In this document: positions 7,301 to 37,019 of the stretch, piece by piece | How the letters are laid out: every line of letters begins with the position of its first letter | Numbering within the stretch: position 1 is the stretch's first letter | From: Neocallimastix sp. 'constans' | Taxonomy: Eukaryota | Assembly (NCBI GenBank): GCA_050613775.1 | Contig: JBODTK010000131.1 | Location: forward strand, 434,001-481,610 | Length of the DNA: 47,610 bases | Direction: 5' to 3' | Notes under the pieces: model-generated | What the model saw: the letters and a program-made list of their open reading frames with translations, nothing else | Databases searched by the model: none | Told to the model about the DNA's origin: nothing | Translations under genes and position numbers: made by a program

Positions 7301-7501
7301 AACTATAATCCCAAAATTAAACATGTAGATATTAGAGTATATTACATAAGAGAAATAATCAAAGAAAATAAAATCTATATTAAATATATAAAATCTGAAA
7401 ACAATCTCACTGATGAGTTTACAAAATATTTAAATGGTACATTAATCGATAAATTCAGAAATTCTGTATTAACCAAAATTGGTGATTTATATTTTATTTG
7501 A
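4375..7501 (+). pseudogene. Copia gag-pol polyprotein, frameshifted, with internal deletion
   Basis: CNYCGKWDHFFYDC knuckle, WILDSGAS protease, LWHRRFAH, LIHMDLIGP integrase, YGLKQSG RT, YVDSDYGGDLETRRSTTG RNase H. Confidence 0.9.
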
Positions 7502-7554
7502 AATAATATAAATAAAAAAATATGACATTTAACTAAATCATATTTTAGGAGGCA

Positions 7555-7789
7555 TGTTAGAATATAAAAAATAAATATTCAATAATGACTTTAATATAGT
7601 TTACCCAATTACAATATTATTATAATTAAATAAAATATATAAAAGAAATAAAATTTAACTTTGATAAATAACTCATATACTTTTAAAATTATAAAAATTT
7701 AAAGATAAACAAAATTAAATATTAAATATTATATATAAAATATTGTATTAAATATATATCTAATTTCATTAATAATTTTTTTGGTGTTT
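7555..7789 (+). repeat. Copia-1 3' LTR (probably truncated)
   Basis: Starts TGTTAG immediately after purine tract 7547-7554; similarity to the 5' copy ends at ~7789. Confidence 0.7.
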
Positions 7790-7790
7790 A

Positions 7791-8180
7791 ATATAATTGG
7801 ACATAAAAAAAATAAAATAAATAAATTAAATCAAAAAAATAAAATAAAATAAAAAATGGAATCAAAAAAAATAATATATTGGATATAAAAAACTTAAAAT
7901 AAAAAAAAAAGGAATCAAAATAAAAAATATATAATTGGACATAAAAAAATAAAATAAAAAAATGGAATCAAAAAAAAAAAAAAAAATTAAAAATTGGAAT
8001 CAAAAAAAAAAAATTAAAAATTGGAATCAAAAAAAAAAAAACAAATTAAAAATTGGAATCAAAAAAAAAAAAATTAAAAATTGGAATAAAAAAAATAAAA
8101 AAATGGAATCAAAAAAATAATATAAATAATTAGATATAAAAAAAAATAAAAAAAAAAAAAAAGTAAAAAAAAAAGTAATA
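7791..8180. repeat. A-rich minisatellite (~27-30 bp AAAATTAAAAATTGGAATCAAAAAA units)
   Basis: About four near-identical tandem units at 7960-8110. Confidence 0.65.
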
Positions 8181-8215: not shown

Positions 8216-8625
8216 GATCTTCTACCAAGTGAATTATAGGTACTTAAGACATATGGAATGAAGTGACTAAGTATAGTAGTTATGAATTACTATACTGTAG
8301 AAGAGACCTAAACTATTTGGACTCATTATTAATATGGATGGATGAAAGACTTACTGAGGAAATTGAATAAGAATATTTTATCAGGAAATTCATAAATCAT
8401 AATCTACATAAAGGAAGCAATAAAAAATATAGAAACAGAAAATAAATTGTGGAGTGATTGAAGGAAATAAATAAAACGACTCAAAGTTTTTTTTAGACCT
8501 GGAGATTTAGTATTAATCGGAAACTTTAATAGAAGAAAATTGCATCCATTTTTTTTAAGACCTTTAAAAATATTGAAACAACAATTTAACACAGTAACTG
8601 TTTGTGATCCAATAACCAAAGATAT
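8216..8625 (+). pseudogene. Relic of Gypsy integrase C-terminus related to element D
   Basis: Translates NEVTKYSSYELLYCRRDL and IKEAIKNIETENKLWSD*RK*IKRLKVFFRPGDLVLIGNFNRRKLHPFFLRPLKILKQQFNTVTVCDPIT, colinear with D pol. Confidence 0.85.
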
Positions 8626-9208
8626 AATATTAATCGTAATAATAAGAGAAACAATAATAATTACTATTTTATAAATAGGGAAAATATTTAATAAAAATGG
8701 ATTTAATAAGTTTTAAGAAAAATTGTTAAGGTTGTCATTGCCCATAATAAAGATTAATTTATATATATAAATAAAATATTATATCATTTTAGTTAAGGAA
8801 TGAATAAATTATGTTATTTTTTTTATTTTCCATTAAAATAATTTAATAACTAAAATTAAATTATTTATTTATTTATTTTATTTGAGAACCTTCCTTTGTT
8901 CAATTACTTCCAAATTATTACAAATGTCCAATTTATAAATATTAATATCAATTATTTATCAATATTAATACTTTATTAATAATATCAATATTATTATTAA
9001 TATCTATTTTTATTAATATTACCCAATTTTTCAATATTTTAGTATTAAAGAAAATTCTATTTTGTTTTCTTTTATGTATTCGATATTTAATAATGTATTT
9101 TATATTTTGTTTATTACATAATTTAATATTATTAATGCATTATTTTTTTATAAATTTATTATTTTATGATGGAAATATCTTTTATTATTTTTTCTTTTAT
9201 TTTCTATC

Positions 9209-9370
9209 ATTAGATTAGATTAGCGAATTGAATAATTAGGGTTTTCAAAATCACTTCTTAGAAGCAGTTGGTTTTATTTAATCAATCCGATGATCGATAT
9301 GGATAAAATATCAATCAAAAACTTATTTTGGTTTTTTTATCTAATCCTTTCTTAGATAAGAGATTTGTTA
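9209..9370 (+). repeat. Dispersed repeat of unknown origin, copy 1
   Basis: Aligns by eye with 45101-45273 (ATTAGATTAGATTAG..CGATGAT.GATATGGATA..TAAGAGA.TTGTTA). Confidence 0.6.
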
Positions 9371-10071
9371 ATAAAATAAACTCTTTCATTATTTAATTCA
9401 ATATAACTGTTGTTATTAGTTCATTATAATTCTTATAATAAAATTCTTTCTATTTTGAAGATAAGTATAGTTTTCTTTTTTATCTTTCTCAATTTAGTAA
9501 AAATTTTATTTAAAGTTATTATTAAGTTGTATTTATTAATTTAATTATAATTAATTTAATAATAAAACTATTAAATTTCAGTAAAAAACTACTATAAGTT
9601 TTTTCTACAATTTAACATTAATCCTAATCTAACTTAGACTAATGATTAAATTGAGAAATAAAAAGGAGATATATTATCTATAATTAATTTTATTATAGCA
9701 ATTATAAATAGTTAAGCCGAAGAACTCGAGAAAATCAAAATATGATACGTTACCTTTAGAAAAATATAGAACTTTAATAATTTCGTAATTAAATTAATAA
9801 GTAAAACAAAAATATTAAGTTATAATATTTTTAATAAATAATCATTATATATACAAATATTTATTTATATTAATGTTAAAAACAGTTAAGTTTTTAATTT
9901 ATATTTTAATTTTAAATTAAATAATTATTAATAGTAAATAATTAAAAAAAATCAACATGCAAATTAAATTAATTAGAAATTTTAATTTTATATAAATTAT
10001 ATAAATAATGAATTTTAACTAAATAAAAATTATATTTTTTTGAAATAATATAAAAATATTAAAATACCTTT

Positions 10072-10144
10072 TACCCGAACCCGGGTTCGAACCGGAGACC
10101 TTTTGCGTGTAAAGCAAACGTGATAACCACTACACTATTCGGAT
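10072..10144 (-). tRNA. tRNA-Val(TAC)
   Basis: Reverse complement ATCCGAA TAGTGTAGTGGTTATCACG TTTGC TT-TAC-AC GCAAA AGGTC TCCGG TTCGAAC CCGGG TTCGGGT A: full 73-nt cloverleaf. Confidence 0.95.
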
Positions 10145-10159
10145 ATCCTGTTGGTACTG

Positions 10160-10819
10160 TGATACGATACCACTATAAAAATAAGATTTAGGTAGGAAAT
10201 TTAGGTTAGAAATATTGTATAAATATTATTGGTCATAATAATTAAAATAATTTATATATAGTTATTCAAATAATTATTTTTAAAAGCATGGTTAATTCTT
10301 TTATCATAATTAAAATAGATAAATTATATTATTAATGATTCTATTATTATGATAATAAATTAATTCATCATTATTATTAATAAGTTTTATTTTATATTTT
10401 AAATATTATTTTGAGAATTATATAGTTTTAGGAGTTATATTATAAATATTGATGATTATATTTTATTTAGGAAATATATTTTTAAATATTGATAGTTATA
10501 TATTATTTAATTATGAAAATGTATTATTAAATAAACTTATTAGGAAATTAATAGTTAAAGAGATATGTTTAATAAAAAATATAATATTAAATAATAATTT
10601 TAACAATTATATAAAATTAAGAGAATGTAATAATAAATATTTATGTATGTAAAAATAAAATTATAAAAATAAATAAAGAATAAAATATTATTATAAAACA
10701 TTATTATTATAAATTATTTTCTTATATTTATTAGAATATATTATCGTGTCATAATTCCCTAGAGAAACGACCAAATAAATAAATAACTAGATATGGAATA
10801 TTTTAAATATACTGTATCA
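10160..10819 (+). repeat. Element A 5' LTR
   Basis: Direct repeat of 13101-13760 (offset 2941, the same offset as the duplicated 67-aa ORFs in the track). Confidence 0.95.
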
Positions 10820-10823
10820 AAAA

Positions 10824-10842
10824 TGGTGGAGAATCCGGGCGT
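10824..10842 (+). promoter_or_regulatory. Primer binding site, tRNA-Ala-like
   Basis: TGGTGGAGAATCCGGGCGT is the complement of ..GCCCGGATTCTCCACCA, a tRNA-Ala-type 3' end (acceptor strand ATTCTCC, compatible with G3:U70). Confidence 0.85.
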
Positions 10843-11144
10843 TTCTCTAGCATGATAATATGAAAATAATAAAAATTTGAAAATATAATAATAATAATAA
10901 TAATATAACAAAGAAAAAAAAAATAGCATGTAATAAAATAATAGTTTATTTTAACACGTAAAGATAATATTAATAGTTTTTAAAGACACGTAATAAAATA
11001 ATAGTTTAAAATAGTAAATAATAAAATAATAGTTATTTTAAAATGTTATAATAATATATTATTTAAAATAACGCGTAATAGATATAAATATAAACAAAAA
11101 AAAAAATTTTTTAAAAAAAAAAAAAAAAAAAAAAAATAATCAAA

Positions 11145-12800
11145 ATGAATGTTCAAGGCTTAATAAAAGAACTACCATTATTAGTCAATTATGGAAGGGA
11201 TATTGATAGATGGATTGAGGACTTTGAGGAAGTTATGGAATTATGGGAGATTTACACATTAAAGCAACAATACTTTTGGATAATTAAATGTGTAAATCAA
11301 GACATAAGTATTGAAATTAAAACATTAAAAGAAAAATATAACAAAAACAATTATCCAACATTAAAAGAAATACAATATGCCATTGAAAAATATTTAAATA
11401 TTACTCAAAGTGAAAAATGCTGGACTTTAAAGACCATAAAAGTTCCAAATGATACAAAAATTTCAATTTTTAATGTAACATACAGAAGACTATTAAAGAA
11501 TTTAGAGAGTGACTTTAGGAAATTAGTGACAATCGAAGATTATATAAATTCAATAAAAGTTAGACGTTACCCATGTCAACAAGTAATTACAAGAGGATGT
11601 AGAACTATAGAAGATGCTATGAAAACTGCTTCTCTGGCTGAAAGAATAGAAAATGAATTAATAGAATCTAATAAGGAAAAAAGAGAATACTTTGATAACT
11701 ATAAAATAACTTATAATAGAAGAAACAATAGAACTGACCATTATAACACGTATTTTAGAGAATATAGATTAATAAATAAAAATAATAATAAAAATTATAA
11801 AAATTTTAAATTTAATCATTACAATAATTATAATAAGGAATTAAAGTCTAATAATTATTATAATAAAATAAATAATTTCACGTGTAGACAAAACAAAATG
11901 AATTATTATAAAAGAAATTATAATATTGAACAAAATAAAAATTTTAATTATTTTGATTCGGATTATACTAATGTTGAATGTGGCAATTCAAATTTTAATG
12001 GTAAAGAAAATTATTTAAAATCTATGAATAATTCTAATTGTAATTCTTGCATGAATGTTAATTCAATATATAATTATTATATTAATAAAGAAAATTTGAA
12101 TTCATATTATTATTATGGTAATATTAATAGTTCTTCAAAAGGTATTTATAAAGAAATAATAAATAGTAATTATGATCATAATATTAATAGTAAAGATACT
12201 TGCACTATTGAAGAAAATTATAAATTAAATTCCATGGATGAAAATGTTAATGTTAAGGGAGAACCAGGAAATAAACACGTAAATAATGATAATGATAGAA
12301 TTCAAACTAAAATCACAACTTATAATGATAATATGGATAAACAAATTATTGAAGAAAATATAGAAGGTAATATGGTAATTAATAAATTGAGTGATACTAT
12401 TCTCGAAGGTAACGTATATAATCCATCACATAAACTAATTCCAGTAGAAAAGAAAAACGAAAACATATTATTATGTAAAGAGGAAAGTAAATTATTAGAA
12501 AGTAAGCCTATTGATAAATTGAAAATAAATAAAATTAAGATGAAAGGAAATAATTTAAATATTTATAATGAAATGATAAATGAAATTAAAATAAATTCTG
12601 ATAATAAAATAATAATAAAAAAAATACCTACTTTAGAAAATTCCAACCAAAATAATGGTAATAGCAAAAATAATTCAAAAAGAAAATTTAAAATTAAATT
12701 TAATTATAAAAATACAATTATTAAAAAGTATAATAATAATAGGAAAGATACAAAGTGTATTATCAGGAATTACAAATATAAAAGAAAAAGAAAAATATAA
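11145..12800 (+). CDS. gag: Gag-like protein, 551 aa, with long Asn/Lys-rich tail
   Basis: First ~170 aa are colinear with D Gag (LPLL..GRDIDRW / LPRL..ARDVDSW; YPTL / YPSI; EKC; VTIEDYINSI..R.YP..QVIT..C..IEDA...A.LAER). Confidence 0.85.
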   Translation: MNVQGLIKELPLLVNYGRDIDRWIEDFEEVMELWEIYTLKQQYFWIIKCVNQDISIEIKTLKEKYNKNNYPTLKEIQYAIEKYLNITQSEKCWTLKTIKVPNDTKISIFNVTYRRLLKNLESDFRKLVTIEDYINSIKVRRYPCQQVITRGCRTIEDAMKTASLAERIENELIESNKEKREYFDNYKITYNRRNNRTDHYNTYFREYRLINKNNNKNYKNFKFNHYNNYNKELKSNNYYNKINNFTCRQNKMNYYKRNYNIEQNKNFNYFDSDYTNVECGNSNFNGKENYLKSMNNSNCNSCMNVNSIYNYYINKENLNSYYYYGNINSSSKGIYKEIINSNYDHNINSKDTCTIEENYKLNSMDENVNVKGEPGNKHVNNDNDRIQTKITTYNDNMDKQIIEENIEGNMVINKLSDTILEGNVYNPSHKLIPVEKKNENILLCKEESKLLESKPIDKLKINKIKMKGNNLNIYNEMINEIKINSDNKIIIKKIPTLENSNQNNGNSKNNSKRKFKIKFNYKNTIIKKYNNNRKDTKCIIRNYKYKRKRKI

Positions 12801-12895
12801 TTTGATTATAATTCAATTAAATTTTCAAAATTCAAAATTCAAAATTCAAAAATTCAAAATTTAAATTATTAAATTTCAAATTTCAAATTTCTATA

Positions 12896-12926
<31 letters not shown>

Positions 12927-13003
12927 AAAAAAAATTTATACATAATATTTTTATGTTTATTGACTTTTTTAACAAAATATATATAAAATTTTAATTATTA
13001 AAT

Positions 13004-13051
<48 letters not shown>

Positions 13052-13060
13052 TTTTCGCCT

Positions 13061-13100
13061 GACTTCAAGGGACGAAGTCTTATTTAAAGTGGGGGAATCT
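13061..13100 (+). promoter_or_regulatory. Conserved pre-PPT hairpin plus polypurine tract of A
   Basis: GACTTC-AAGGGAC-GAAGTC, then AAAGTGGGGGAA just before the 3' LTR. Confidence 0.8.
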
Positions 13101-13760
13101 TGATACGATACCACTATAAAAATAAGATTTAGGTAGGAAATTTAGGTTAGAAATATTGTATAAATATTATTGGTCATAATAATTAAAATAATTTATATAT
13201 AGTTATTCAAATAATTATTTTTAAAAGCATGGTTAATTCTTTTATCATAATTAAAATAGATAAATTATATTATTAATGATTCTATTATTATGATAATAAA
13301 TTAATTCATCATTATTATTAATAAGTTTTATTTTATATTTTAAATATTATTTTGAGAATTATATAGTTTTAGGAGTTATATTATAAATATTGATGATTAT
13401 ATTTTATTTAGGAAATATATTTTTAAATATTGATAGTTATATATTATTTAATTATGAAAATGTATTATTAAATAAACTTATTAGGAAATTAATAGTTAAA
13501 GAGATATGTTTAATAAAAAATATAATATTAAATAATAATTTTAACAATTATATAAAATTAAGAGAATGTAATAATAAATATTTATGTATGTAAAAATAAA
13601 ATTATAAAAATAAATAAAGAATAAAATATTATTATAAAACATTATTATTATAAATTATTTTCTTATATTTATTAGAATATATTATCGTGTCATAATTCCC
13701 TAGAGAAACGACCAAATAAATAAATAACTAGATATGGAATATTTTAAATATACTGTATCA
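13101..13760 (+). repeat. Element A 3' LTR
   Basis: Copy of 10160-10819, followed by TSD ACTG. Confidence 0.95.
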
Positions 13761-14760
13761 ACTGTGGTAAAGAATGAATTAATAACCTTTATTTTATTAT
13801 TAATAATTCTTTACTAAATTGTACTTTCCTATATTCTTGATAACCTAAACTTAATAATAAAATTTAATTTATTTTGATATAAATTAATTTTAACTTGTAA
13901 ATAATGTAAATAAATTTTAATTAATTACTTTATTGTTATATTATTAAATATATGTATATATTAAAATACAATTGTAAATATTAAAATTATACTTTTAAAA
14001 TACTAAATTATTAAAAACTATTAATTAAATATTATTATAAAAATTATTATAAAATTATTAAAATTATTAATTAAATATTATTATAAAAATTATTATAAAT
14101 TATTAATATTATAAAATTATTAAAATTATTAAATATTATTATAAAAATTTATTTATTATAACTATTAAATATTATTATAAAATTATTAAGATTATTAATT
14201 AAATTTATTATTAAAAATTATTATTAAAAATTATTACTTATTATAAAAATTATTATTTAAATATTATCAAATTTATTAATTAAATATTATAAAAATTTTA
14301 TTTTATTTTGAAAATAATTACAAGTATTATTTAAAATAATTAAAGATTATTAAATTTATTATATTAATCTTTAAAAACAATTTATTTAACTTAAAAATAT
14401 CAAAGAAAATAGTAAAAACTATTTTCTATATATTTATTTTATAATTATTTTTAATTAAATTATATTTGAATATTATATTATTATATTTATAAAAATTAAA
14501 ACAAAAATGAATTATTGATATAAAATTAATTCAATAATTCTATAAAATTACTTAAATTATAAACAAATAATTATACCTTAAATTCAAAAAAAATTATAAA
14601 TATTGTAAATATTTCTTAAAAATTAAATATGTGTACTTTAAATAATAAAATTTTATATTAATAAAAAAAAAATAAAATAACTTTTAATAAAGAATTATTT
14701 TTTTTTAAATCAAAGCAGCGTAATACCCGTCCCCCCCTGCTTGATTTTAAATATCTAAGT

Positions 14761-14779
14761 GTCAACCCCGAGTCTACCA
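14761..14779 (-). promoter_or_regulatory. Primer binding site of C1 element (tRNA unassigned)
   Basis: Minus-strand TGGTAGACTCGGGGTTGAC, 2 nt after LTR end ..TTTTACA. Confidence 0.65.
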
Positions 14780-14781
14780 AT

Positions 14782-15339
14782 TGTAAAAGGTAAGTTTATT
14801 ATTAACTAAAATAACGAATAATAACTAATTCTAAAGGCTAAGATAACTTAACACCTCTCTATTCGAGTTGTTAATAATAAACACTAAATTAATTAATTCT
14901 ATAATTATTATTTCTTATTACACTAGAATATAGCGCAGCACTTTATAACTCTATTTGTTATCAGTTACTGGGCTTACACTGAGCAATATTTTTTATTTAA
15001 TAATTATATTTTTTATTTAATAATATTAATATTTATAATAACAATTTACGTTAATAGTAACGCTAGTGCGTTACAGTTACAAGTTCAATTATTATTTATA
15101 CATGTCAATAATATTATGATTGGTAAATAATTTAATTTAACTTAGTTTACTAATCACTAAATAAAATATATTTAAATAAATATTTAACTATATAATTATT
15201 TATAAATTAATAAAATTTAATGTACGAAAGTAATAAAAGATTTTATTTGATTAGCCGAAATTGCTAGCTGTTTAGAGATACGTTACGTAACCAAAGAACT
15301 ATCATTGGATAGGCTTGAAGTTACCATGTATCTGTTACA
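14782..15339 (-). repeat. Family C LTR copy 1 (5' LTR of a largely deleted element)
   Basis: TGTAA..TTACA ends; near-identical to 21442-21993 and 30955-31511; PBS adjacent on the left. Confidence 0.85.
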
Positions 15340-15346
15340 GGTATGT

Positions 15347-15959
15347 TGTTATAGTTTGCTTATTATCTTAATTTAGAATTTAATTTCTAAAAGTGATAAT
15401 AAGTATAACAAAATTAAATGTTTTATAATCAATAAATTAAAATTTTATTAAAACACAAAATATCTTAAACTTATAAAAAAAAAAGCAAATTTCTTTTAAG
15501 TTAAAAGATAATAAAATTTTAAATTAATAATTTTTGAGAAATTAATTATTTTTTTTTTATTAATTCTGTTTCTTTAAATTTGAGATTATTTATACAAGTT
15601 TATATATTTTTCTTTTAAATTAAAGATTTTAAAATAAAACTATCTAATTATTATTTTTAAACAATTATCATTATTTTTAAACTAAAGTTTACATTAAGAT
15701 TTTTATAATATATCATTTTTAATTTTTATTATCAAAATTACATTGTTCTTTAAAATAAAATATTTAATATTTAATAATTTTAATTATTTTAACAATTTAA
15801 TTTATTTATATTATTTATTTAAAATATTTACTTTTATTATTATTAATTAATTTATAGTTATTGTTTAGATGGTAATATGATTTATTTTATTTTGTTTAAT
15901 AATTTTATTCATTTTCAATAATATAATGTTTTATTGATTTATAATTTAATCCTTTATCA
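15347..15959 (-). repeat. Element B 3' LTR
   Basis: 613 bp; preceded on the minus strand by PPT-like ATGGAGGA and the hairpin. Confidence 0.93.
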
Positions 15960-16020
15960 AGTCCTCCATGCTTAAAATGATACTTCGTCTCTTGAAGTAT
16001 TAAAATTTTCTTCTCTAATA

Positions 16021-18586
16021 TTATAAGGAAAAAATATTTTTAATATGAACATTTCTTGGTAATAATTTTCCTGTTTGGGGATCTTCCAAAACTACTGTAT
16101 TAAATATTGGTTTTCTAACTACTTTAAATGGTCCGTAAAAGTATGGGTCTAATTTTGATCTATTTATTAATTTAATCATAAAGTAATCTCCAACTTTATA
16201 TTTTCTTTTCAATGCTTTTGAAAATCCGATCCTGTGTTCCCAATATTTATTTGCATATTCTGAATATTCGATTGCTTCCTTTACCCACTTATAATGTCTC
16301 AAAAATCTCCTAAAGTTAAATTCTTCCTCACTTTCTCCTTCTTCCTGATGTATATCCGGAAACATTATCTCCATTGGCCATGTATCTGTTCGTCCATATA
16401 ATAACTCGAAACTACTGAATTTTGTTTTTTTACTCTTTGTTGTTCTTAGTGCCCATAATACTGATGGTAGGCATTCATCCCATTCCTTTTCATTCTCCAG
16501 TAAAAGTCTCAATATTTTCCCAATTTCTCTATTCCTGTTTTCGATCATTCCGTTTGATGGGGGTGGTGAGGTGAAACAAAATGAACCCATGATCCATAAA
16601 GATCTATCATCATCTTTGTTATATCTGAAATAAACGAACTTCCACTGTCTGTGATTATTAATTCCGGTGGTTCATGACGTGCTATAACTTCTGTCAAAAA
16701 TTTGATAACTTGATCTGATCTAATATCTGGTATAGCCTTTGCTTCAGGCCATTTAGTAAAGTAATCTACTAAAGTTATAATATAATTGTTACCTTGTTTC
16801 GTTGTTGGTAATGGTCCAACAATATCCAATCCCACTCTGGTGAACGGCCTTTCTACTGGTGTTATATGGTCATCAGTATTTTTAGCGATTGGTTTTGGCC
16901 TGAAGAGTTGACACCTATGGCAAGACTTTACCCACATTTTAACATCGCTCCAGATTCCAGGCCAATAATACGATTGTAATATTCTAAGAGTTGTTTTTTC
17001 AGCTCCTTCGTGGCCGACGTTATGTGCTCTATCTATTATGTTTTTCTTATCTTCATCTCTAACGATAACTTTCAAATACATATTATTTCTTTTATAATAT
17101 AAAGTATTGTTTATTATTTGATGTCTTTAGTCCTTCGATTGTTAGAACGTGACCTAATACTTCAACTTTATCTTTGAAAAATTGGCATTTTTGAAGATTA
17201 ATTGATAAATTATATTTGGAAAATATTTCAAATACTTGCTTTAAGTGATTGATGTGTTCTTTCATACTTTTTGAATAAACTACAATGTCATCAATATATA
17301 CAAACAAACATTCACCTATTAATGGCAGTAAAATTCTAATCATTTCACGTTGAAATGATGCCGGTGCATTGGTTAAACCAAAGGGCATCACTAGAAAATT
17401 GTAGTTACCGTATTTCGTAGTAAATGCAGTCTTTTCTATATCATCTTTGTTCATGGGTATTTGGTGATACCCGGAAAATAGATCTAATGCTGAAAAAATT
17501 TTCGCTCCTCTTACTGATGTTATGAGTTCATCTATGAATGGTAGTGCATATGAGTCTTTTATTGTTATATTATTTAATTTTCTGTAATCAATGCACATTC
17601 TCCATTTTCCATTCTTTTTCTGTACCAAAAGAACTGGAAAAGACCATGGAGAGTGAGATGGCTCAATTAGTCCTTTCTTTAGTAAGGATACAATTTCTTT
17701 TTTTAATATTTCTGAGTGCTCCTTAGACATTTTATATGGTTTTAATTTTATTGGGTTGTTTGTAAGTGTTATTATAGAATGTGGTTCTAGTTTTGCTGTG
17801 GATAACTGGGAAAGTGATGTTGCCATACAACTCTTATTGTTTAATATTAAATTTCTAAATTCTGTTTTTATTTCCTCTGGTACATTACTAATAATTTCTT
17901 CTAAAGTTTTATTGAATTCTTTTTCCTCTTCATCTGTAATAATTACTGCGTTAATAAGTGGTGTATTATTGCCATTATCATTTATAATTTCTACAATTTT
18001 TTGTTAAACTGTTATCGTCATTTTTTTGATAAATAGAATCATCGTCAGGATCTATTAATAGTCTGTATTTTTTTTGTATGCTTCTCCCAATGATTATGTC
18101 ATAAAAAGGATTAGTATAATCAATGATATAAAATTTATCATATATTACCAGTTTATCATTAATTTTTAATTTTAAATCAGTATAATAATTTGTTAATACA
18201 ATAGTATTATCCGCTAATTTAATTTCAATTTCTTTATCCATTTTATTTATGTTTTTACATTTTAATTTATTGTAACTTTATTGTGTTATAATATTTATGT
18301 TAGCCCCAGTATCAAATAAAACCTTTAATGGTATATTATAACTTTCCCCAATAATAATAGGAATATTAGTGTTGGCTATGGAGCAGATAATCTTTTCAAC
18401 TCTGGGCTTTAATTTTTGTTCTAATTCTTTTCTTATAGATGGGCTAGCTGCTAAAAGTTGCGATAGGTTTATTTTTGGGAATAAATTTTTAAACTCTTCT
18501 GTGATGTTAAATTTTTGATCTTTTTCTAATAGTTGTATTTCAGTCATGTTTCTTTTTGTAAGTACTTTTGATTGTTTTTTTTTATA

Positions 18587-18618
<32 letters not shown>

Positions 18619-19084
18619 CCATTTCGTTATCATTATTACTAGTTGCATTGTTATTATTTTTATGACTACTATTTCCATTGTGGATATTATTATTATTATC
18701 ACTTATTTGTTCTAAATTTGAATTTTTATTTTCTTTAGAGATTTCTTCTTCATTATCTGGTTCATTTTCACTTTCATTAATTTCCATTTCTTCATTTTCA
18801 CTTATTATTTGCATTCTTCTTCTTTTATCTCTAATTTCTAGTTTTTGTTGCTTAACTAATTTGGTTCTTGGTTGGTTTAATATTGCTGGTTTAACAATTG
18901 ATTTTTTAAAAGAATTTGATTTATGTGATATATTTGGTGTATTTTCTTTTTGGACTACGTTTATTGCATATGGTTGATTTTTTTCATTGAATTTAATATT
19001 TTTATAAAGATTATTATTTTTGAATGTTGTAGTTGCAATTTTGTTTAAATTGGAAGATTGCGTACTCCCAATATTTAGTTTAAA
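16021..19084 (-). pseudogene. pol: B pol: protease, RT, integrase; split into several ORFs, RNase H deleted
   Basis: LFDTGANIN (PR), CIDYRKLN/YIDD (RT), AHNVGHEG..CHRC, GLDIVGPLP, TDSG (IN), LDPYFYGPFKV. Confidence 0.92.
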
Positions 19085-20027
19085 GATTCATCATCATTGT
19101 CAATATTATTATTTTCGTTGTTGTATTTATTATCATCGTCACTGCATTCTTCCTTATTATGTCCTTGTAAATAGTTTACACAGAAATTTAATGTTAATTC
19201 TGATAATTTCTTTGTTAATTCTTCCATTTCGTTGTTGTTTAGTTTATTTTTATTATTATTATCATTTGTTTTATTTGTTAACCTTGAATTGTTGTAATAA
19301 TCATTTACATGTTGTCTATTATAATTAGTATTCTTATTTTGATTGTAATAGTTATAATGATTATTATATTTGTGTTTATTTTCATTATTATTTACATTTT
19401 GATTTTGAAAATTTTTATTTGAATAATTATAATGTGTGTCAAGTTTCCTATCACTATTAGAAGATTTTACTTTATTATTCGATCCTTTTTCTTTATTTTC
19501 TTTAATTAATTTCATTATTTTTTCTTTCTTAGAGGTTATCTTCATTGCTTCTTCTAATGTTATTGGCTCTTCTTCCATTAAACTTTCGTAAATTCTTGGC
19601 CAGTTTCTAAAAGCGTTTATGTAATATGAGATAATTATAACTTCAGATATATTAACAGTTTTACTGACTTGATTTAGTAAATCAGAAAATCTCAAGTCGA
19701 AGTCAGATATACTCTCGTCCTTCTTGATTGTAATAGATGATAGCTCCAATATTCTCGAATTTTTAGTGGATGACTTTTTAAAGTGTTTACTCAGATTGGT
19801 TAAGATAGTTTCATAACTATCCGGAGTTTTTTATTTAATGAATTATAAACTATTGTTCTAGCAGTTTTATCTGTAATAGCAAAGAGGTAATCCACTTTTT
19901 CGGATTCTACTTTAATGCCAAATGTTTTGCACCAATGATCAAACGCAAATTTCCATTCGTCAAATGAACTTTTTGAACTTCCTAAAATAGGAATTCATTT
20001 AAATGTTAAAGCTTTTGTTTGATCCAT
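19075..20027 (-). pseudogene. gag: B gag (premature stop and frameshift)
   Basis: MDQTKALTFK*IPILG.. homologous to E Gag METTTKAITFSRLPILG; degenerate CCHC. Confidence 0.85.
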
Positions 20028-20807
20028 CTTATTACTATATAATTATTTAAGTGGTTCTTTTATTATTATTAAATGAATTAATTAAAATTTAATATCCAAT
20101 ATTTTATTTTATTTATTTTATTTTATATTATTTAATTTTATTTTATTTTATTTTATTTTATTTTATTTTTTTATTTTTATTTTTATTTTTATTTTTATTT
20201 TTATTTTTATTTTTATCTTTATTTTTATTTTTATTTTTATTTTTATTTTTTTTTTTTTTTTTTTATCTATATTATTTTATTAATAATTTCTTTTAAATTT
20301 ATTTATTTATTTTATATATTAGTATGTATTACTATTTTTTTTATAAATATATATATAAATATACTATTATATTTTACTATACTTTATTTTGATTATATGT
20401 TAAATTTATTATATTAATTATACTTTATTAATTATATATTTAATTTATATTTATATTTATGTACTTGAACATATTAGTTTATATTTATTAAATATTGTAT
20501 ATATATTTTTTTAATATTTTCGTATCTTTATTTTAAATTTAATTTGTGTAACAATATTTTCTTTTTAATATCTTATACTATTAGATATATTATCAATTAA
20601 CTTATAATTTATTGTTTATTAATTTAATATATTTAACAACATATTTTCAATATATTATTTATATATTATTTCCTTAAATTTTATTATAAATTATTAAATT
20701 AACTGTGACTGTAACAAAAAAAAAAAAAATTTTATTTGAATTTCAATTTTCAAATATCTTACCACTATTTGAAAATTTATTTTTATATTATACTTATCAC
20801 CGGCCTT

Positions 20808-20823
20808 AGAGGATTCTCCACCA
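20808..20823 (-). promoter_or_regulatory. B primer binding site, tRNA-Ala-like
   Basis: Minus-strand TGGTGGAGAATCCTCT, 2 nt from the 5' LTR. Confidence 0.85.
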
Positions 20824-20825
20824 GT

Positions 20826-21440
20826 TGTTATAGTTTGCTTATTATCTTAATTTAGAATTTAATTTCTAAAAGTGATAATAAGTATAACAAAATTAAATGT
20901 TTTATAATCAATAAATTAAAATTTTATTAAAACACAAAATATCTTAAACTTATAAAAAAAAAAAAGCAAATTTCTTTTAAGTTAAAAGATAATAAAATTT
21001 TAAATTAATAATTTTTGAGAAATTAATTATTTTTTTTTTATTAATTCTGTTTCTTTAAATTTGAGATTATTTATACAAGTTTATATATTTTTCTTTTAAA
21101 TTAAAGATTTTAAAATAAAACTATCTAATTATTATTTTTAAACAATTATCATTATTTTTAAACTAAAGTTTACATTAAGATTTTTATAATATATCATTTT
21201 TAATTTTTATTATAAAAATTACATTGTTCTTTAAAATAAAATATTTAATATTTAATAATTTTAATTATTTTAACAATTTAATTTATTTATATTATTTATT
21301 TAAAATATTTACTTTTATTATTATTAATTAATTTATAGTTATTGTTTAGATGGTAATATGATTTATTTTATTTTGTTTAATAATTTTATTCATTTTCAAT
21401 AATATAATGTTTTATTGATTTATAATTTAATCCTTTATCA
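20826..21440 (-). repeat. Element B 5' LTR
   Basis: 615 bp copy of 15347-15959. Confidence 0.93.
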
Positions 21441-21441
21441 A

Positions 21442-21993
21442 TGTAGAAGGTACGTTTATTATTAACTAAAATAACGAATAATAATTAAATCTAAAGGCTA
21501 AGATAACATACCTCTCTATCCGAGTTGTTAATAATAAACACTAAATTAATTAATTTATAACTATTATTTCCTATTACACTAGAATATAGCGCAGCACTAT
21601 ATAACTCTATTTGTTATCAGTTGCTGGGCTTACACTGAGTAATATATTTTATTTAATAATTATGTTTTATTTATTAATATTAATATTTTTATCAACAATT
21701 TACGTTAATAGTAACGCTAGTGCGTTACAGTTACAAGTTCAATTGTTATTTATACATGTCAATAATATTATGATTGGTAAATAATTTAATTTAACTTAGT
21801 TTACTAATCACTAAATAAAATGTATTTATCTAAGTATTTAACTATATAATTAATTATAAAATAATAAAATTTAATGTACGAAATTAATAAAAGATTTTAT
21901 TTGATTAGCCAAAATTGCTAGCTGTTTAGAGATACGTTACGTAACCAAAGAACTATCATTGGATAGGCTTGGAGTTACCATGTATCTGTTACA
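21442..21993 (-). repeat. Family C solo LTR (C2)
   Basis: Homologous to C1/C3. Followed by TGGTA, which matches the tRNA-Val upstream flank 10152-10156. Confidence 0.85.
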
Positions 21994-23205
21994 TGGTATG
22001 TTATGATACGATATATTAATAAATAGTTAAAATTAGTAAAATTATTGATAGTAATGTTGAAATTATAACTGAATTGAAATCTCAATTTCAGTTATTCACA
22101 TTTCAATATACATTTAATTAATAATTAATATAAATTCTTATTTAATATTTAAAGAATTATCTTAGGCCTAATAATTCTGAAAATATTAATAAATAAGATT
22201 TATATTAATAATTTCAATTATTTACATATGACGTCACATGTATTTATTTATATTATGTTTATATATATGTTTATATCATATATATTAATTACTATTTTTA
22301 ATTATTCAAATTAATTATACAAATTAAATTTATTTAATTATATTAAATATTTTAAACATATCGATATTGTTATTATTTTAATATTTTATTAATATTCATT
22401 TTATTATATTATTATTATCCTATAATTAAATACTATTATTATGTAACTTACAAAGTATAAAAGAAAGATGTAAAAATCTATCTTTTATGTTCTTTGTAAG
22501 GTTATTGTATTTACAATAATTATATACTAATAATTCAATAAATAAATATTTTCATAAATCCTTCAAGGAAATTATTATTTAAAATATTCTTAGATATTAA
22601 GTGTTTAAATAACTTAACTATTTAAATTATATTATTTTAATTATATTATTATTAATTAATTATTGTTGGATTATTAATATATAATTCAACATATTAACCT
22701 AGTAACGTTATTAATCATAAAACTATTTTATATCTTAATTTTAACAAGTAAAAATAATATAATTTTTAAAGTTAAATAGTTATTTTATGTTTAGTATAAT
22801 ATTAAAAGAATATAAATAAACAGTTAGTTAGTTAGTTAATTTAAGTAAGAGATATGTATAAAATATTCTAGAAATAATTATATAATAATATTGAATTAGA
22901 GGAGTAATTAATATTCTTATATAGATTATAATAGAATAATAATTGCATAATTGGTTGTACTTAAATTAAATAAAGATAAATAATAAAGAAAGATTGACAT
23001 ATTTAAATTATTGTGAGAATTATTATTATTGAAGTATAATTATTCTTATAGAATTTATTAAGTGTTTACGCATAAGATTACACCCTGATCCCTATACAAG
23101 TTAAAAATCTTGTATCAAAATTGGTGAAGAATCCGGGCGTTGCAATATTGGAAATTAATATGAAAATAATAATAATAATTAATAATTTTTAAAAATAAAT
23201 TTATA

Positions 23206-23236
<31 letters not shown>

Positions 23237-23592
23237 TTAATTCTTATTATGTGTAATAAAATAAATAGTAATATTTGATATATTATTATAAAAGGCATAT
23301 TAATATAAAATTATATTTTAATAGTATTTTTAATATAATAAAAAAAAATAGTATAATTGATTAAACGAATTAATAAGAGAATATAAATCTTTGAGATAAT
23401 TATCAATTATTATTAGTTTATAGGAGGGAGATAAATAATAATATTGATGAATTATGATAAGATTGTATATTAATTATATAATTGTATTAATCAGTTTCTA
23501 TTATCTTTATTATAAAAAAAAATTTATTAACTATATTTTATTAATTAAATGCGCCTTTAGTAAATAAATAAGAAAGTAAATACTAAGCCAAA

Positions 23593-24006
23593 ATGAATTC
23601 TAAATCAAATATTTTAGAAGATATTATTGGATATAAAAAAATTAACGGAATAATGAATAATATTATTAAAGGAATTGATGACATTTCAAGAGAAATAATA
23701 ATGAAAAACGCGTTCTTGGAATATAATAATATTTATAAAATTTCAACTAAAAAAATAAATTTTAAACTTGAGGAGAAATTAAAAATTGTTGAAGTAAGAG
23801 AAATAAAATTGGAAAAGAAACCAATTAAAAATATTAGTAAAAAAGTAAGAAAAGAAAAAAGAAAAGTAAAAAGGGAAAATGATAAATGCATAAATATCAT
23901 TATTAAAATATTAATTATTAAAATTAGTAATAACAGGAAAGACACGAAAACAGTTGAACGTAATTACAAAAACAAAAAAAAAAAATTTGCAATTCAAAAT
24001 TTATAA
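23593..24006 (+). pseudogene. Remnant of the C-terminal tail of an A-type Gag
   Basis: NNRKDTKTVERNYKNKKKK vs A NNRKDTKCIIRNYKYKRKRK; KLEKKPIK vs KLLESKPID. Confidence 0.65.
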
Positions 24007-24105
24007 TTTCAAAATTTTACATTTTAAAATTTAACATTTCAAAATTTTACATTTTAAAATTTAACATTTCAAAATTTTACATTTTAAAATTTAACATTTC
24101 AAAAT
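24006..24105 (+). repeat. 30-bp tandem repeat x3.3
   Basis: ATTTCAAAATTTTACATTTTAAAATTTAAC repeated perfectly three times plus a partial unit. Confidence 0.9.
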
Positions 24106-24724
24106 CAAAATTTCAAAATTTCGAAATTTCAAAATTTCAAAAATTCATGTTAATAAATAAATGAATAAAAATAAATAATTAAATAAAAATAAATAATTAA
24201 AATGCTTTTTTCCAGAGACTTCAGGGGACGAAGTCTAATTTCAGCAGGGAGGTCTTGATACGGGATGAATAAATAAATATAAAAATTAATAAATTTAGAA
24301 AAATAATAAAATAAAATTTAATTAAAGTTAAAATAAAAATTATATAGTTTAAAATAATAATAAACAATAAAAAAAATTAAAAAATAAATAAATTAAAATA
24401 AGAATTATTAAGAAAAAAAAATATTTTAGAGATAGAGAAAATAAATATAAATAAAAGGTCTTAGAGAGAGGCCTTAATTGAGATTTTTAGTTTGTAATAA
24501 TTAGTAAAATAAAATAATAAAAGTAATGTTAAAAATGTAATTAATGTAAAATTTAAATAATTATAAATAAAGTATTAAATATAAAATAATAAAATATTTA
24601 AGTTTTATTTAATATAATTATTGTGTTAAAATTATTAATTGTTTTATTAGAATATATTAATTTTCCTCAAATAAAATATTGCAAGTCCCATAAAAGTATA
24701 CGATAATAAAAATATCGTATCAGT

Positions 24725-25523
24725 TGATTTATACCTGATATTCTTAATCTACAAAAATTAAATTTTGTAGAAGTGAATAAGAGGATAAATACTGAATAAA
24801 ATAGATTTAAGAAATTTAAAAAAAATAAATATGTTTTATTATTAAACACAAAAATGTTTTATTAAAAAATTTATTTTTATTTTAATATTAATCTTTATTT
24901 ATTTAATAATTAATTTTGTTTAAATTAATAAAATAATCGTTAAAACTAATAAAATAATAAAAATGAAATATTTATTATTTATACTAATTTATTTTAAATT
25001 TTAATAATAAAATTGATTATTAATAACTAATAAAATATCTATAATAATTTATTAAATAATTAATAATAAAGAATAATTCATAAGAAATATTTACATGTTT
25101 TTATATTTTTCTTTGATTTTAAACTATTTACATTAAAAATAATAAAATTAATAAAAGAGAAATAAAGAATAATTTATTATTAAATTAAACAATATTTACA
25201 ATTAAAATATTAATAAAGATGAGTTTTAAAATGTTATTTTAATTACAATTTGTATATAAAAGTTGAGTTATAAAATAAATAAAATAATCATTATTTTAAA
25301 TAAAAGTAACTTAAAAATTATTTAACTATTTAATTTTAATTTTGCGATGTTTATAAGTTTGTTTATTTGTTATTTATAATTTATTAAATATGTTTATTAT
25401 TTTGTTTATTTGTAGTTTTAGAAAAATATTATTTATTAATTTATTTTAGTTTTTAATTAAAATTATTAATGATTAATTAATTTATTATTATTTTATTTTA
25501 ATTATTTTTATTTAATTAATTTT
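24725..25523 (-). repeat. Truncated, diverged family E LTR (E')
   Basis: Colinear with 37628-~38430 with scattered substitutions; breaks off and joins Copia integrase sequence. Confidence 0.85.
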
Positions 25524-27930
25524 ATGGGTCAAATCTATTGAAAATATATTTAATAAGACCATCACTTACATTCGTACCGACAATGGTACGGAATTTACGA
25601 ACAATAAATTCAAGTATTTCTGCTCTCAGAGAGGTATTGTTCAACAGTTCACTATCCCTCATAATCCTCAACAAAGTGGGAGAGCTGAACGATTTAATGG
25701 CACCCTCATAAGTTCAGCTAAATCTCTACTTAATGATTCACAACTTAGTAAAGAATTCTGGGAATACGCGGTAGACACTGCTAATTACATACACAATCGT
25801 ATTCCCCACTCTGGCATCAACAACAAAATCCCTTTTGAACTATTATTTAAAACCAAAATGGATTATTCACATTTTAAAGTCCTCGGTTGTAAGATCTTCT
25901 TCTTTGTTCCTAAATCACAACGAAACAAATTCGACAATAATTCCCTTCCAGGTATCTTCTTGGGTTATCACCCATTAACTAATTCCTATAAAATTCTGAA
26001 CATAGCTAATAATAAGATCGTTCTCTCTCGTTCAGTCGAATTCTTCGATGATACTCCTGGAAACTCCAAAATACCTAACCCTAACCCCTAACCCTAGAAA
26101 TTTCCCAAACTTTATGCCAATTTCCGAAATCAGGGGGAGCAACACCTATATGTTAAACAAATTTAATAATTTTAATAACTTTTCTTACAATCCACAAAAC
26201 TCGCATGGACAAATCGACAACAGCAATAAGATAAATTATAACAATATTTCCTCACACAAAGAAAACAAAACAAACGACACAACCACTGAATTAAACCAAA
26301 TAAACACCAGAAAACGTAATGATAATCAAAAACTCAAAGAACCAAATGACTTTGATGACATTTTTAGCCTACCTGACAAAGACGACTGGTTAAAAGCCAT
26401 AAACGAGGAACTTAAGAATATGGAGAAACTTAAGGTTTTCAATACCACCAAATCCTTACCTACTGGTGCTAATATCATATCCTGTAAGTGGGTACTAAAA
26501 TATAAAAGGGACGCCGATGGGAATATCATAAAAAGAAAGGCCCGTCTAGTAGCTAGAGGCTTCATTCAAAGGTATGGAATAGACTATACCTTCACCTTCT
26601 CCCCCACATTAAAACTAGACTCACTACGAATTATCGTTGCTCTCGCAGTACAAAGAAACTACCGAATAATGCAAATTGACGTTAACGCCGCATACTTAAA
26701 TGCCGACCTAAATGAAAACATCTATATCAAGGCACCAAAGGGACACCCGATGCACAACAAAGGATTCTTAAAACTCAACAAAGTCTTGTATGGATTAAAG
26801 CGGGCAGGCCGAGAATGGAACGAGACACTGAACAACACACTCACAAAGATTGGATTCCGAAGATTAATTAGTGAACCGTGCCTATACATCATGGAAAACG
26901 AATCAAAAGAGGTTCTATGTATTGTAGCGGTCTACGTAGATGATATATTACTGATAGGTAAACAAAAAGAAATTTTATATCTAAAAGAACAAATTAAAGT
27001 ATATTTTAATATTAAAGATATAGGTGATATTGATTTCGTCATTGGAATAAAATTTAAAAAATATTACGATGGATATTTCATGCATCAACGAGGTTACATA
27101 AAAGAATTATTAGTTAAGTTTAAACTAAAAGATTGCTTACCCGTTAAAAACTTGAAACCCATTGAGAATCTTAATTTAAGAAAAAGAAAGTGCGACGAAA
27201 CATTATATAGGAGTGCAATTGGAAAATTAATCTATCTAGCTGTCTGTACTAGGCCTGATATAATGTTTGCCGTAAGCAGGGCTGCCAGAAAGAATAAGAA
27301 TCCAACTTTAGAGGATTGGGCCAATGTTGAACGAATATTCAAGTATCTGAGTTATACTATAAACTACGGGATAAAATTCACAAAGGAAAGGTCGTTGAAG
27401 GTATACGTAGATGCAGATTTCGCGGGCGACACCGAATCGAGAAAGTCAACCTCTGGATTCTTGATGATGATTGGAAATGCGCCAACTAGCTGGTATTCTA
27501 AGCTACAGAAGTGTGTAGCGACATCTACTGCTGAATCGGAATATTATGGTGTTAGTGAGTGTGCAAAGCATAGCCTATGGTACATGAACATATTAAACGA
27601 ATTGAATGTAAATATAAATTCCGTTACCATTAACATTGATAATAAGGCCGCAATATACAACTGTCAGAATCAATCAATAAACTCAAGATCAAAGCATATC
27701 GACATCAAATATCATCACGTAAGGGAACTTATTAAGGAAAATAAAATAAATTTAAAATATATTAATTCCAAAGAAAATCTAGCCGATGGATTTACAAAGT
27801 ATCTTTGTAACTCCCTAATGGACAAATTTAGAAATTCACTACTCATGAAGTGAAAGACCACTGAGACAAATCTCACATATCTTTACGGATAGTTAGATTT
27901 GAGGGGGAGTGTTAAACGACAATATTAATG
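25524..27930 (+). mobile_element. 5'-truncated Ty1/Copia element (Copia-2) with PPT and start of 3' LTR
   Basis: IRTDNGTEF..PQQSGRAER integrase, RT-RH ORF, PPT GAGGGGGAG 27901-27909 followed by TGTTAAAC. LTR 3' end not resolved. Confidence 0.88.
26048..27853 (+). CDS. pol: Copia reverse transcriptase/RNase H (open 601-aa segment of a truncated pol)
   Basis: KARLVARGF, QIDVNAAYLN, LYGLKRAG, YVDDIL, YVDADFAGD..RKSTSG, RSKHIDIKYH, ENLADGFTK. Confidence 0.9.
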   Translation: MILLETPKYLTLTPNPRNFPNFMPISEIRGSNTYMLNKFNNFNNFSYNPQNSHGQIDNSNKINYNNISSHKENKTNDTTTELNQINTRKRNDNQKLKEPNDFDDIFSLPDKDDWLKAINEELKNMEKLKVFNTTKSLPTGANIISCKWVLKYKRDADGNIIKRKARLVARGFIQRYGIDYTFTFSPTLKLDSLRIIVALAVQRNYRIMQIDVNAAYLNADLNENIYIKAPKGHPMHNKGFLKLNKVLYGLKRAGREWNETLNNTLTKIGFRRLISEPCLYIMENESKEVLCIVAVYVDDILLIGKQKEILYLKEQIKVYFNIKDIGDIDFVIGIKFKKYYDGYFMHQRGYIKELLVKFKLKDCLPVKNLKPIENLNLRKRKCDETLYRSAIGKLIYLAVCTRPDIMFAVSRAARKNKNPTLEDWANVERIFKYLSYTINYGIKFTKERSLKVYVDADFAGDTESRKSTSGFLMMIGNAPTSWYSKLQKCVATSTAESEYYGVSECAKHSLWYMNILNELNVNINSVTINIDNKAAIYNCQNQSINSRSKHIDIKYHHVRELIKENKINLKYINSKENLADGFTKYLCNSLMDKFRNSLLMK

Positions 27931-37012: not shown

Positions 37013-37019
37013 GAAATTA

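Follow-up and report, generated by a model that had tools for sequence, protein, structure and literature searches.

Integration of Ty3/gypsy retrotransposons at RNA polymerase III (Pol III) start sites is already known from Ty3, DGLT-A and Tj1. In Dictyostelium discoideum, DGLT-A inserts upstream of the mature tRNA 5' end at a distance of about 15 bp, with 18 of 20 copies at 13-18 bp, and a contact between RNase H and Tfc4 is described (PMC6101501). The element inserts in either orientation (PMC5911963), its integrase is reported without a chromodomain extension, and at dictyostelid tRNA loci later elements sit between the tRNA gene and earlier ones (PMC5006619). The Ty3 integrase of Saccharomyces cerevisiae contacts TBP via its SH3-type CTD and Brf1 via a vestigial chromodomain (10.1101/2021.07.27.453949). 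Tj1 (Schizosaccharomyces japonicus), Tca8/beta (Candida albicans) and Tyl3/Tyl6/Ylt1 (Yarrowia lipolytica) are found at tRNA start sites or immediately upstream, and early-diverging fungi are not among the hosts of tRNA-targeting elements named in the accessible part of that source (PMC5911963). We found no description of tRNA-gene stacks in gut fungi in the literature covered, which did not extend to Navaratna et al. 2024 (Fungal Genet Biol 172:103897). The usual account of tRNA-gene targeting sees in it a strategy by which elements survive where genomes are gene-dense (PMC5006619, PMC6101501).

Here we analyzed a window of 47,610 nucleotides, meaning the whole stretch of DNA introduced above, whose host is likely an anaerobic gut fungus. 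Rfam found three tRNAs only in this window, and the 17 ORFs scanned with Pfam gave retrotransposon domains or no match. Seven LTR-retrotransposon insertions of at least six families stand back to back upstream of tRNA-Val(TAC) (10072-10144, minus strand, mature +1 at 10144; ARAGORN and Rfam RF00005), and three more lie upstream of tRNA-Ser(TGA) (43389-43470, plus strand), which is followed by tRNA-Cys (43484-43555). We regard it as very probable that Ty3/gypsy families of one clade inserted successively 11-17 bases upstream of these tRNA genes, probably by docking on the Pol III complex, and that older copies were pushed out. The tRNA-Val stack described in an earlier note is real, as its 15-bp flank and all junction strings quoted there were confirmed.

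From tRNA-Val outward the order is A, H, C1, B, C2, F and E', at 15, 15, 13, 15, 12, 17 and 15 bp after peeling; A, H and F point away from the tRNA gene, and B and E' towards it. The 15-bp flank between tRNA-Val and A (10145-10159, by sequence and peel) ends in ACTG, the proximal copy of the target-site duplication (TSD) of A (ACTG/ACTG). Element A (10160-13760, plus strand) is a non-autonomous Ty3/gypsy element and the youngest by TSD. Between its LTRs (10160-10819 and 13101-13760) we find a primer-binding site (PBS), a gag-like ORF (11142-12800; 33-39% to gag of element G below and of loci L002/L003 by tblastn), a hairpin and a polypurine tract, without pol. Element H (13765-14779, plus strand; TSD ACTG/ATTG, 2 bp into C1) represents a further family, of which it is a solo LTR. 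Across 239 bp it is 96% identical to the 3' LTR of L013, located after the L013 polypurine tract; the 1077-bp LTR of L010, in which the same terminal stretch is followed by a PBS, matches most of H at 75%. H was missed in the earlier six-element order, which otherwise keeps its relative sequence and now has seven entries. The large deletion attributed to C1 as an exception likewise disappears, because 13765-14779 is this separate solo LTR; by the same L013/L010 matches, 14765-14779 was dropped as a candidate PBS of C1.

C1 itself (14782-15339, strand not assigned) has a perfect 5-bp TSD (GGTAT/GGTAT) and is likely a solo LTR of family C, as is C2 (21442-21993; TSD TGGTA/TGGTA). The three copies of this family are ~94-95% alike with TG...CA ends; we found none joined to a PBS or to coding sequence, and the identity of the family as an LTR comes from these ends and the TSD. 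In the spacer GGTATGT (15340-15346, by sequence) the distal TSD of C1 overlaps the proximal TSD of B. Element B (15347-21440, minus strand; TSD ATGT/ATGT, 3 bp into C2) is a Ty3/gypsy element with LTRs at 15347-15959 and 20826-21440; gag, protease, RT and integrase are present, RNase H is deleted and there are several frameshifts (Pfam; tblastn against L015 pol). The spacer TGGTATGTTA (21994-22003) holds the distal TSD of C2 and the proximal TSD of F. Element F (22004-24722, plus strand; TSD GTTA/GTTG) is a deleted relative of A, the PBS region, ORF end and 3' hairpin being 71-77% alike. Its LTRs (22004-23117, 1114 bp, and 24256-24722, 467 bp) are unrelated with only termini in common, and judging from its sequence F may be two fused insertion events. 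The outermost entry E' (24725-25523, minus strand) is an LTR fragment of family E, 96.7% identical to the LTR of E. A Ty1/copia fragment (25524-27910, plus strand; integrase part and RT; Pfam rve, SH3_retrovirus, RVT_2) truncates E' at 25523, and the distal TSD of E' is gone.

The second stack consists of E, G and C3 at 14, 15 and 11 bp from tRNA-Ser. Element E (37628-43374, minus strand; TSD ACAA/ACAA) is an internally deleted Ty3/gypsy element, and G (31512-37622, minus strand; TSD TACA/TACA) is a complete one, whose gag (35992-36894) occupies a different frame from pol (32153-36007). Its pol has 1284 open codons (PR-RT-RH-IN), with Pfam matches to RVT_1 (505-665), RT_RNaseH (728-858), Integrase_H2C2 (935-989) and rve (1010-1100). 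C3 (30955-31511; TSD ATTCA/ATTCT), a family C copy, is the distal entry. Together the ten insertions at the two tRNA genes peel to 11, 12, 13, 14, 15, 15, 15, 15, 15 and 17 bp, and such recurrence of copies at much the same short distance upstream of tRNA genes is the criterion used in PMC5006619. The TSDs are 4 bp long in A, H, B, F, G and E, and 5 bp in family C only.

Peeling from tRNA-Val outward leaves 2 mismatches in all over six TSDs and returns exactly ATCCTGTTGGTATGT, the ancestral flank inferred earlier. When the 26 spacer letters were shuffled 300,000 times, no shuffle reached 2 mismatches or fewer (lowest 4), nor did any of 300,000 random spacers (lowest 6). That the insertion order can be read from the TSDs was borne out in part. 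Six elements can be removed in 720 orders, of which 24 share the lowest count, 2 TSD mismatches. In all 24, A comes after H, H after C1, C1 after C2 and B after C2; F came after E', since the distal TSD copy of F takes in the first bases of E'. All five pairwise orders fixed by TSDs run proximal-younger, which is as much an observation as the elements, boundaries, TSDs and distances themselves, and polarised growth at the tRNA-Val end is thereby supported. For B relative to A, H and C1, and for F relative to the rest, the order is inferred from an assumed fixed distance to the tRNA gene: only A, H, C1, B, C2, F holds every insertion 12-17 bp from tRNA-Val, whereas each of the other 23 tied orders requires one or more insertions at a distance of 574-11,859 bp.

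These 23 orders, equal on TSD mismatches, would also suit a process that targets earlier LTR ends or a short TG-rich sequence, with the tRNA gene as the first landing only and the later order unpolarised. The TSDs of H, B, F and G do share bases with the start or end of an earlier LTR, but such overlap is expected if 14-17 bp inserters come after 11-13 bp inserters. LTR-LTR contacts without a visible tRNA are also found elsewhere, as in L001, where a G-like LTR end directly abuts a C-like LTR start, and in runs X9 and X12, where an A-type LTR is preceded by non-tRNA sequence resembling another LTR end. However, every TSD-fixed relation points towards the tRNA and both stacks end 14-15 bp from the tRNA gene. 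Moreover, a spacing of 14-15 bp between LTR end and tRNA gene, with flank alone between, recurs at other tRNA genes: in L025 an LTR-type end is located 14 bp before an initiator tRNA-Met gene (which the PBS sequences here do not match), and in run X12 a 15-bp flank separates another tRNA-Val copy from 16 bases that are identical to the end of the E-family LTR. On this evidence we consider targeting of LTR ends unlikely.

Other DNA gives a mixed picture of how often tRNA-Val flanks are occupied. In runs X3 and X9 a further tRNA-Val copy has an LTR-like TGATAAG start after 12 bp, and run X12 holds the same flank without this start; two of the six distinct tRNA-Val upstream flanks carry an LTR-type start at 12-15 bp, and four do not clearly do so. 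A tRNA gene is seen in 1 of 59 related loci, most of which are short contigs ending within LTRs. The exact tRNA-Val pattern gave no matches in viral and metagenome contigs, the C-LTR pattern none in viral contigs, and a Pol alignment search no confirmed loci in viral contigs. The 12 loci matched in genome contigs are fungal contigs mis-binned in prokaryote MAGs, and five such MAGs, searched for LTRs, the hairpin-LTR pattern and tRNAs, returned the known contig or AT-rich noise only. Twenty tRNA regions from two of these MAGs, compared for GC alone, were left out of the analysis.

LTR divergence was expected from the earlier note to agree broadly with rank, but it yields no usable age gradient. 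The LTRs of A are indeed identical (0/660 differences) and those of B, put at about one substitution, differ by 1 substitution and one 2-base homopolymer indel, but these are the only comparable pairs in the tRNA-Val stack. With G (0/603) and E (0/926) there is 1 substitution in 2802 aligned LTR sites, and divergence was rejected as a clock. Structural decay does not support a clock either: the most proximal elements A and E are internally deleted, while the pol frame is intact in G, the second entry of its stack. F, which the earlier note called rearranged or diverged together with E', cannot be dated because its two LTRs have only termini in common.

The missing gradient among LTR pairs, the two unrelated LTRs of F, the truncation of E' by the copia fragment and the four solo-LTR entries could all be taken to mean that targeting is real but that recombination between loci moved, fused or erased blocks, and then rank would not track age. 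We find this very improbable: the flank is echoed in register across all six junctions to E', and transfer from another tRNA locus would break the register. Loss of entries fits successive insertion beside the tRNA gene equally, as it affects completeness and not order. Successive insertion has a cost of its own, since it puts three insertions and two solo-LTR events after B, yet the B LTRs gained one substitution, so that very fast turnover or LTR homogenisation is needed. An assembly artefact joining collapsed repeats is the least credible account: although no contig in X3, X9, X12 or X14 spans the tRNA-A junction (a gap there proves nothing) and identical LTR pairs can arise from polishing, a mis-join would not place duplications of a single tRNA flank, 4-5 bp long and interlocking, between families that are unrelated, the second stack obeys the same rule with its own flank, and the open pol frame of G speaks for good base quality.

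In a quick RT tree of 81 rows, Ty3 and DGLT-A not among them, G, B, L010/L013 (H family), L025, L018/L019 (E-type) and Orpinomyces proteins form one clade (49 rows, SH-aLRT 98). The Metaviridae pol order of protease, RT, RNase H and integrase is complete in G, and B, which has lost RNase H by deletion, has RT before integrase. A, B, G and E carry TG...CA LTRs, a PBS, a polypurine tract and a TSD of 4-6 bp; H is linked to Ty3/gypsy LTRs by homology to L010/L013, and family C by ends and TSD only. The integrase tail past the GP motif is 22-53 residues long in 101 of 102 motif-bearing proteins (114 examined), and the match to Ty3 Gag-Pol stops at residue 1417 of 1547, with 32 query residues remaining compared to 130 in Ty3. 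The predicted structure has a 36-residue linker helix and then beta strands (beta-barrel) to the end; Foldseek confirmed the integrase folds and nothing more, the low TM-scores (~0.4) reflecting domain orientation. As judged from sequence and model, these integrases stop after the SH3-type domain and have no room for a Ty3-type chromodomain. The absence of Pfam chromodomain hits (0 of 25) carries no weight here, because the chromodomain of Ty3 is itself invisible to sequence search.

Taken together, we propose that the integration complex would dock on the RNA polymerase III start complex, and that each newcomer would land beside the tRNA gene and shift older copies outward; owing to its internal promoter, the tRNA gene survives. 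H, C1, C2 and C3 probably became solo LTRs by LTR-LTR recombination, later deletion or fusion may have shaped F and E', and the defective A, B and E were presumably mobilised in trans. Since the long linker helix and SH3-type CTD are kept and the chromodomain is missing, the likeliest contact would be integrase SH3-TBP and/or, by analogy with DGLT-A, RNase H/integrase N-terminus with TFIIIC. Ty3/gypsy targeting of Pol III is likely reached here without the protein part by which Ty3 aims, and the chromodomain absence points to a docking route unlike that of Ty3.

Possibly, and we offer this tentatively, gut fungi carry a radiation of chromodomain-less Ty3/gypsy families with their own Pol III docking route in a large, repeat-rich rather than compact genome, and ordered multi-family stacks at each tRNA gene. 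Such a targeting clade would test the gene-dense-genome idea in a different genome and lineage. If so, a chronology of family activity that needs no clock would emerge from many stacks combined, and TSD copies parked at the start site would be a read-out of Pol III-linked mutation. For very young families, with LTRs too similar to be dated, the stacks give relative ages. The integrase would be a candidate safe-harbour delivery tool for hard-to-engineer gut fungi, and G, which looks intact, could serve as a site-specific integration tool.

Position-specific integration yields polarity automatically, and the polarity is an expected by-product, already noted at dictyostelid tRNA loci (PMC5006619), and no new kind of system. 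The proposed analogy with a CRISPR array holds for the geometry, as new units join one anchored end and position gives order, but we see no sign of host capture or memory function: there is no constant repeat, captured foreign spacer or host acquisition enzyme, and the units are whole selfish self-inserting elements of 0.55-6 kb, erasable by recombination. Tj1, Tca8/beta and Tyl3/Tyl6/Ylt1, likened by description, are also fungal Ty3/gypsy elements at tRNA genes, but their hosts are all ascomycete yeasts. Ty3 shares the Ty3/gypsy domain order and inserts at a like position, ~15 bp upstream of where the mature tRNA begins; its gag and pol also lie in separate frames, and its integrase has a long CCD-CTD linker helix and an SH3-type CTD. 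It differs in its 5-bp TSDs, compared to 4 bp in the coding families here, and in the vestigial chromodomain (integrase residues 446-511) that binds Brf1, as the integrases here end before such a domain. DGLT-A, absent from the RT tree and likened by position and domain features, has in common the lack of a chromodomain, both orientations and the tRNA-upstream window, which at 13-18 bp takes in 8 of the 10 insertions here, the two outside being C copies at 11 and 12 bp. DGLT-A has, however, a single gag-pol ORF, in contrast to the separate frames of G, and is known as ~20 decayed copies in a compact genome, whereas here at least six families are stacked seven deep.

The layout of stack 1, the LTR elements before tRNA-Val(TAC) (mature +1 at 10144, − strand), was obtained by self-comparison and junction listing. 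A 15-bp flank lies between the tRNA and A (10160–13760, then spacer ACTG), followed by H (13765–14779, then AT), C1 (14782–15339, then GGTATGT), B (15347–21440, then A), C2 (21442–21993, then TGGTATGTTA), F (22004–24722, then GT) and E' (24725–25523, then a copia fragment). The earlier note had described 13765–15339 as one deleted element, C1, and this had to be revised. The 3' LTR of the related locus L013, directly after a polypurine tract, is 96% identical to 13765–14003, and the 1077-bp LTR of L010 aligns along H, shares its terminal stretch and leads into a primer-binding site. Since both LTRs match H, the sequence comparison identifies it as a solo LTR that landed 2 bp inside C1. Internally, F is related to A but deleted (71–77% in three segments), and only at the termini do its two LTRs show any relationship; E', cut at 25523, is 96.7% identical to the LTR of E. 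With seven entries from at least six families, the depth of stack 1 is unusual.

Peeling stack 1 outward from the tRNA with TSDs of 4 or 5 bp, i.e. removing insertions one by one and merging TSD copies, left 2 mismatches in 26 TSD positions and recovered the flank ATCCTGTTGGTATGT before E'. Element boundaries were taken from LTR pairs or homologues, independently of the TSD fit, and with these fixed none of 300,000 spacer-letter shuffles (lowest 4) and none of 300,000 random spacer sets (lowest 6) matched 2 mismatches, confirming that an ancestral flank is echoed at the junctions. We then counted TSD mismatches for each of the 720 orders in which A, H, C1, B, C2 and F can be removed, and 24 tied at 2. 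Common to all 24 is that A is younger than H, H than C1, and C1 and B than C2; A is placed after H because both copies flanking A have the variant base. The distal TSD copy of F includes the first two bases of E', and the five adjacent relations (A-H, H-C1, C1-C2, B-C2 and F-E') are all proximal-younger. The TSDs leave free the order of B versus A, H and C1, and of F versus the other elements. A single tied order has every insertion near the tRNA, at 15, 15, 13, 15, 12 and 17 bp from the mature +1 (E' at 15 bp), while the remaining ones require insertions 574–11,859 bp away that chance on the echo. Because only one order keeps all insertions near the tRNA, reading the stack as a chronological tape is parsimonious, though part of it rests on assuming a fixed distance: the TSDs themselves give the adjacent relations, but the full order needs that distance.

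The LTR pairs are free of substitutions in A (0/660), G (0/603) and E (0/926), and those of B differ by one (1/613) and by a 2-base homopolymer indel; this marks the elements as very young and makes ranking by LTR divergence impossible. Coding decay does not track rank from the tRNA: gag is all that A retains, RT and the greater part of the integrase are missing from E, B lacks RNase H and carries frameshifts, and G is intact. The broad agreement between decay and rank proposed in the earlier note is therefore not supported. The defective copies probably moved in trans. TSD pairs differ at 3 of 39 sites versus 1 of 2802 LTR sites, although none of the elements behind the three mismatches has an LTR pair that can be dated; setting the TSDs of A, H, C1 and B against the LTRs of B, which is the fair test, gives 1/17 versus 1/613 (p = 0.053). 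Both stack 1 mismatches are transitions in the tRNA-proximal copy, at most a hint of the hypermutability reported for tRNA 5' flanks (PMC6130373).

Stack 2 lies before tRNA-Ser(TGA) (43389, + strand; tRNA-Cys(GCA) at 43484, + strand) and holds E (TSD ACAA/ACAA, 14 bp from tRNA-Ser), G (TACA/TACA, 15 bp) and C3 (ATTCA/ATTCT, 11 bp). G and E both overlap the last bases of C3 and are therefore younger, while the TSDs do not fix their mutual order. The two stacks point toward each other around the copia fragment and ~3 kb (27911–30954, up to C3), which may contain more stack 2 LTR remnants with no assignable boundary. At L001:5900–6251 a G-like 3' LTR end directly adjoins a C-like LTR start, the family pairing of G/C3, but with C in opposite orientation.

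The window has 21.9% GC and abundant LTR retrotransposon domains. Downstream of both tRNA clusters lies a repeat (9150–9570 and 45036–45580, ~75% alike), and in four runs reads cover 9230–9415 several hundred times as deeply as unique pieces nearby. Downstream of tRNA-Val, 8256–8630 holds a decayed piece of integrase from the gypsy clade of the stacked elements (66–71% DNA identity to L002/L003). The decayed Ty1/copia element at 3134–7793, whose LTR segments differ by 19 substitutions over 232 bp, is much older than the stacked elements and adjoins an unrelated gypsy fragment (1–2734).

The flank is present in animal faeces metagenomes, and together with the Orpinomyces homologues of G Pol this makes an anaerobic gut fungus (Neocallimastigomycota) the most likely host. 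Among 59 related metagenome loci, only L025 carries tRNA genes; its initiator tRNA-Met is preceded at 14 bp by an LTR-type end that is unlike the 5' LTR end of the element itself, so this putative junction may represent another small stack. A narrow read comparison at the tRNA-Val flank (four runs, 14 of 16 loose ends listed) showed other tRNA-Val copies with at least six different upstream flanks among those listed, four of six not clearly LTR-bearing. In run X12 one flank continues after 15 bp with 16 bases that match the E LTR end exactly. In X3 and X9 another continues after 12 bp with an LTR-like start, TGATAAG, whereas in X12 it continues differently, which fits a presence/absence difference. 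No contig in the four runs spanned the tRNA-A junction. Contigs L060–L071 are gut-fungal retrotransposon sequences mis-binned into several prokaryote MAGs.

A rapidly built RT tree with 81 rows (SH-aLRT support only; Ty3 and DGLT-A absent) placed G and B in a single 49-row clade (support 98) together with L010/L013 (H family), L018/L019 (E-type LTR end), L007 (A-type LTR start), L025 and Orpinomyces proteins; the other gypsy of the window (1250–2734) fell outside on a long branch. The closest named homologues of G Pol are Orpinomyces (Orpsp1_1) proteins, at ≤73% identity. Of 114 integrases examined after removal of six named non-fungal proteins, 12 lacked the GP motif, mostly through truncation, and 101 of the 102 motif-bearing proteins end 22–53 residues after it. 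In G, 32 residues remain where Ty3 has 130. Its structure model (mean pLDDT 74) has a linker helix (257–292) and a terminal beta-barrel, and the best Foldseek matches were PFV and Ty3 integrases. G pol stops (32153–32155) seven codons before its closest relatives, P0002–P0004, which run on to ...TSRDEV, and may thus be slightly truncated. Family C has a distinct footprint (5-bp TSD, 11–13 bp), and no coding copy of it was found.

Just before the polypurine tract of A and F (13060–13080 and 24216–24236) we observed a conserved hairpin with a CTTC-7 nt-GAAG core, present at matching places in B, G, E, L001–L007, L018, L019, L031 and L067; the H family has a different one. It also encodes a TSRDEV-like integrase end. 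Because its outer stem bases covary in pairs (GA/TC, AA/TT, TA/TA) and it is retained in A and F, both without integrase, the hairpin is likely cis-acting.

Taken together, the feature is real, and the earlier observation is corrected and extended. Ty3/gypsy targeting upstream of tRNAs has been established for Saccharomyces, Candida, Yarrowia, S. japonicus and dictyostelids (PMC5911963 and PMC7175516), and later insertion between a tRNA and an earlier element has been noted (PMC5006619, including a Table 1 footnote). Our searches on retrotransposons of gut fungi and on ordered or stacked insertions turned up no account of such targeting in Neocallimastigomycota (the directly relevant survey of Navaratna et al. 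2024 was beyond reach) and none of TSD-peeled multi-family stacks. The mechanism belongs to a known type, in a lineage for which the literature searched gave no report. Likening the stack to CRISPR leader-end growth, as initially proposed, holds as an analogy and nothing beyond. Ty3 contacts TBP through its SH3 CTD and Brf1 through a vestigial chromodomain, which aims the integrase (10.1101/2021.07.27.453949); the integrase of the stacked elements lacks this domain. As it ends shortly after the GP motif, these elements resemble DGLT-A, which uses RNase H and Tfc4 (PMC6101501), in insertion geometry and missing chromodomain, and would dock on TFIIIB/TFIIIC through a putative contact.
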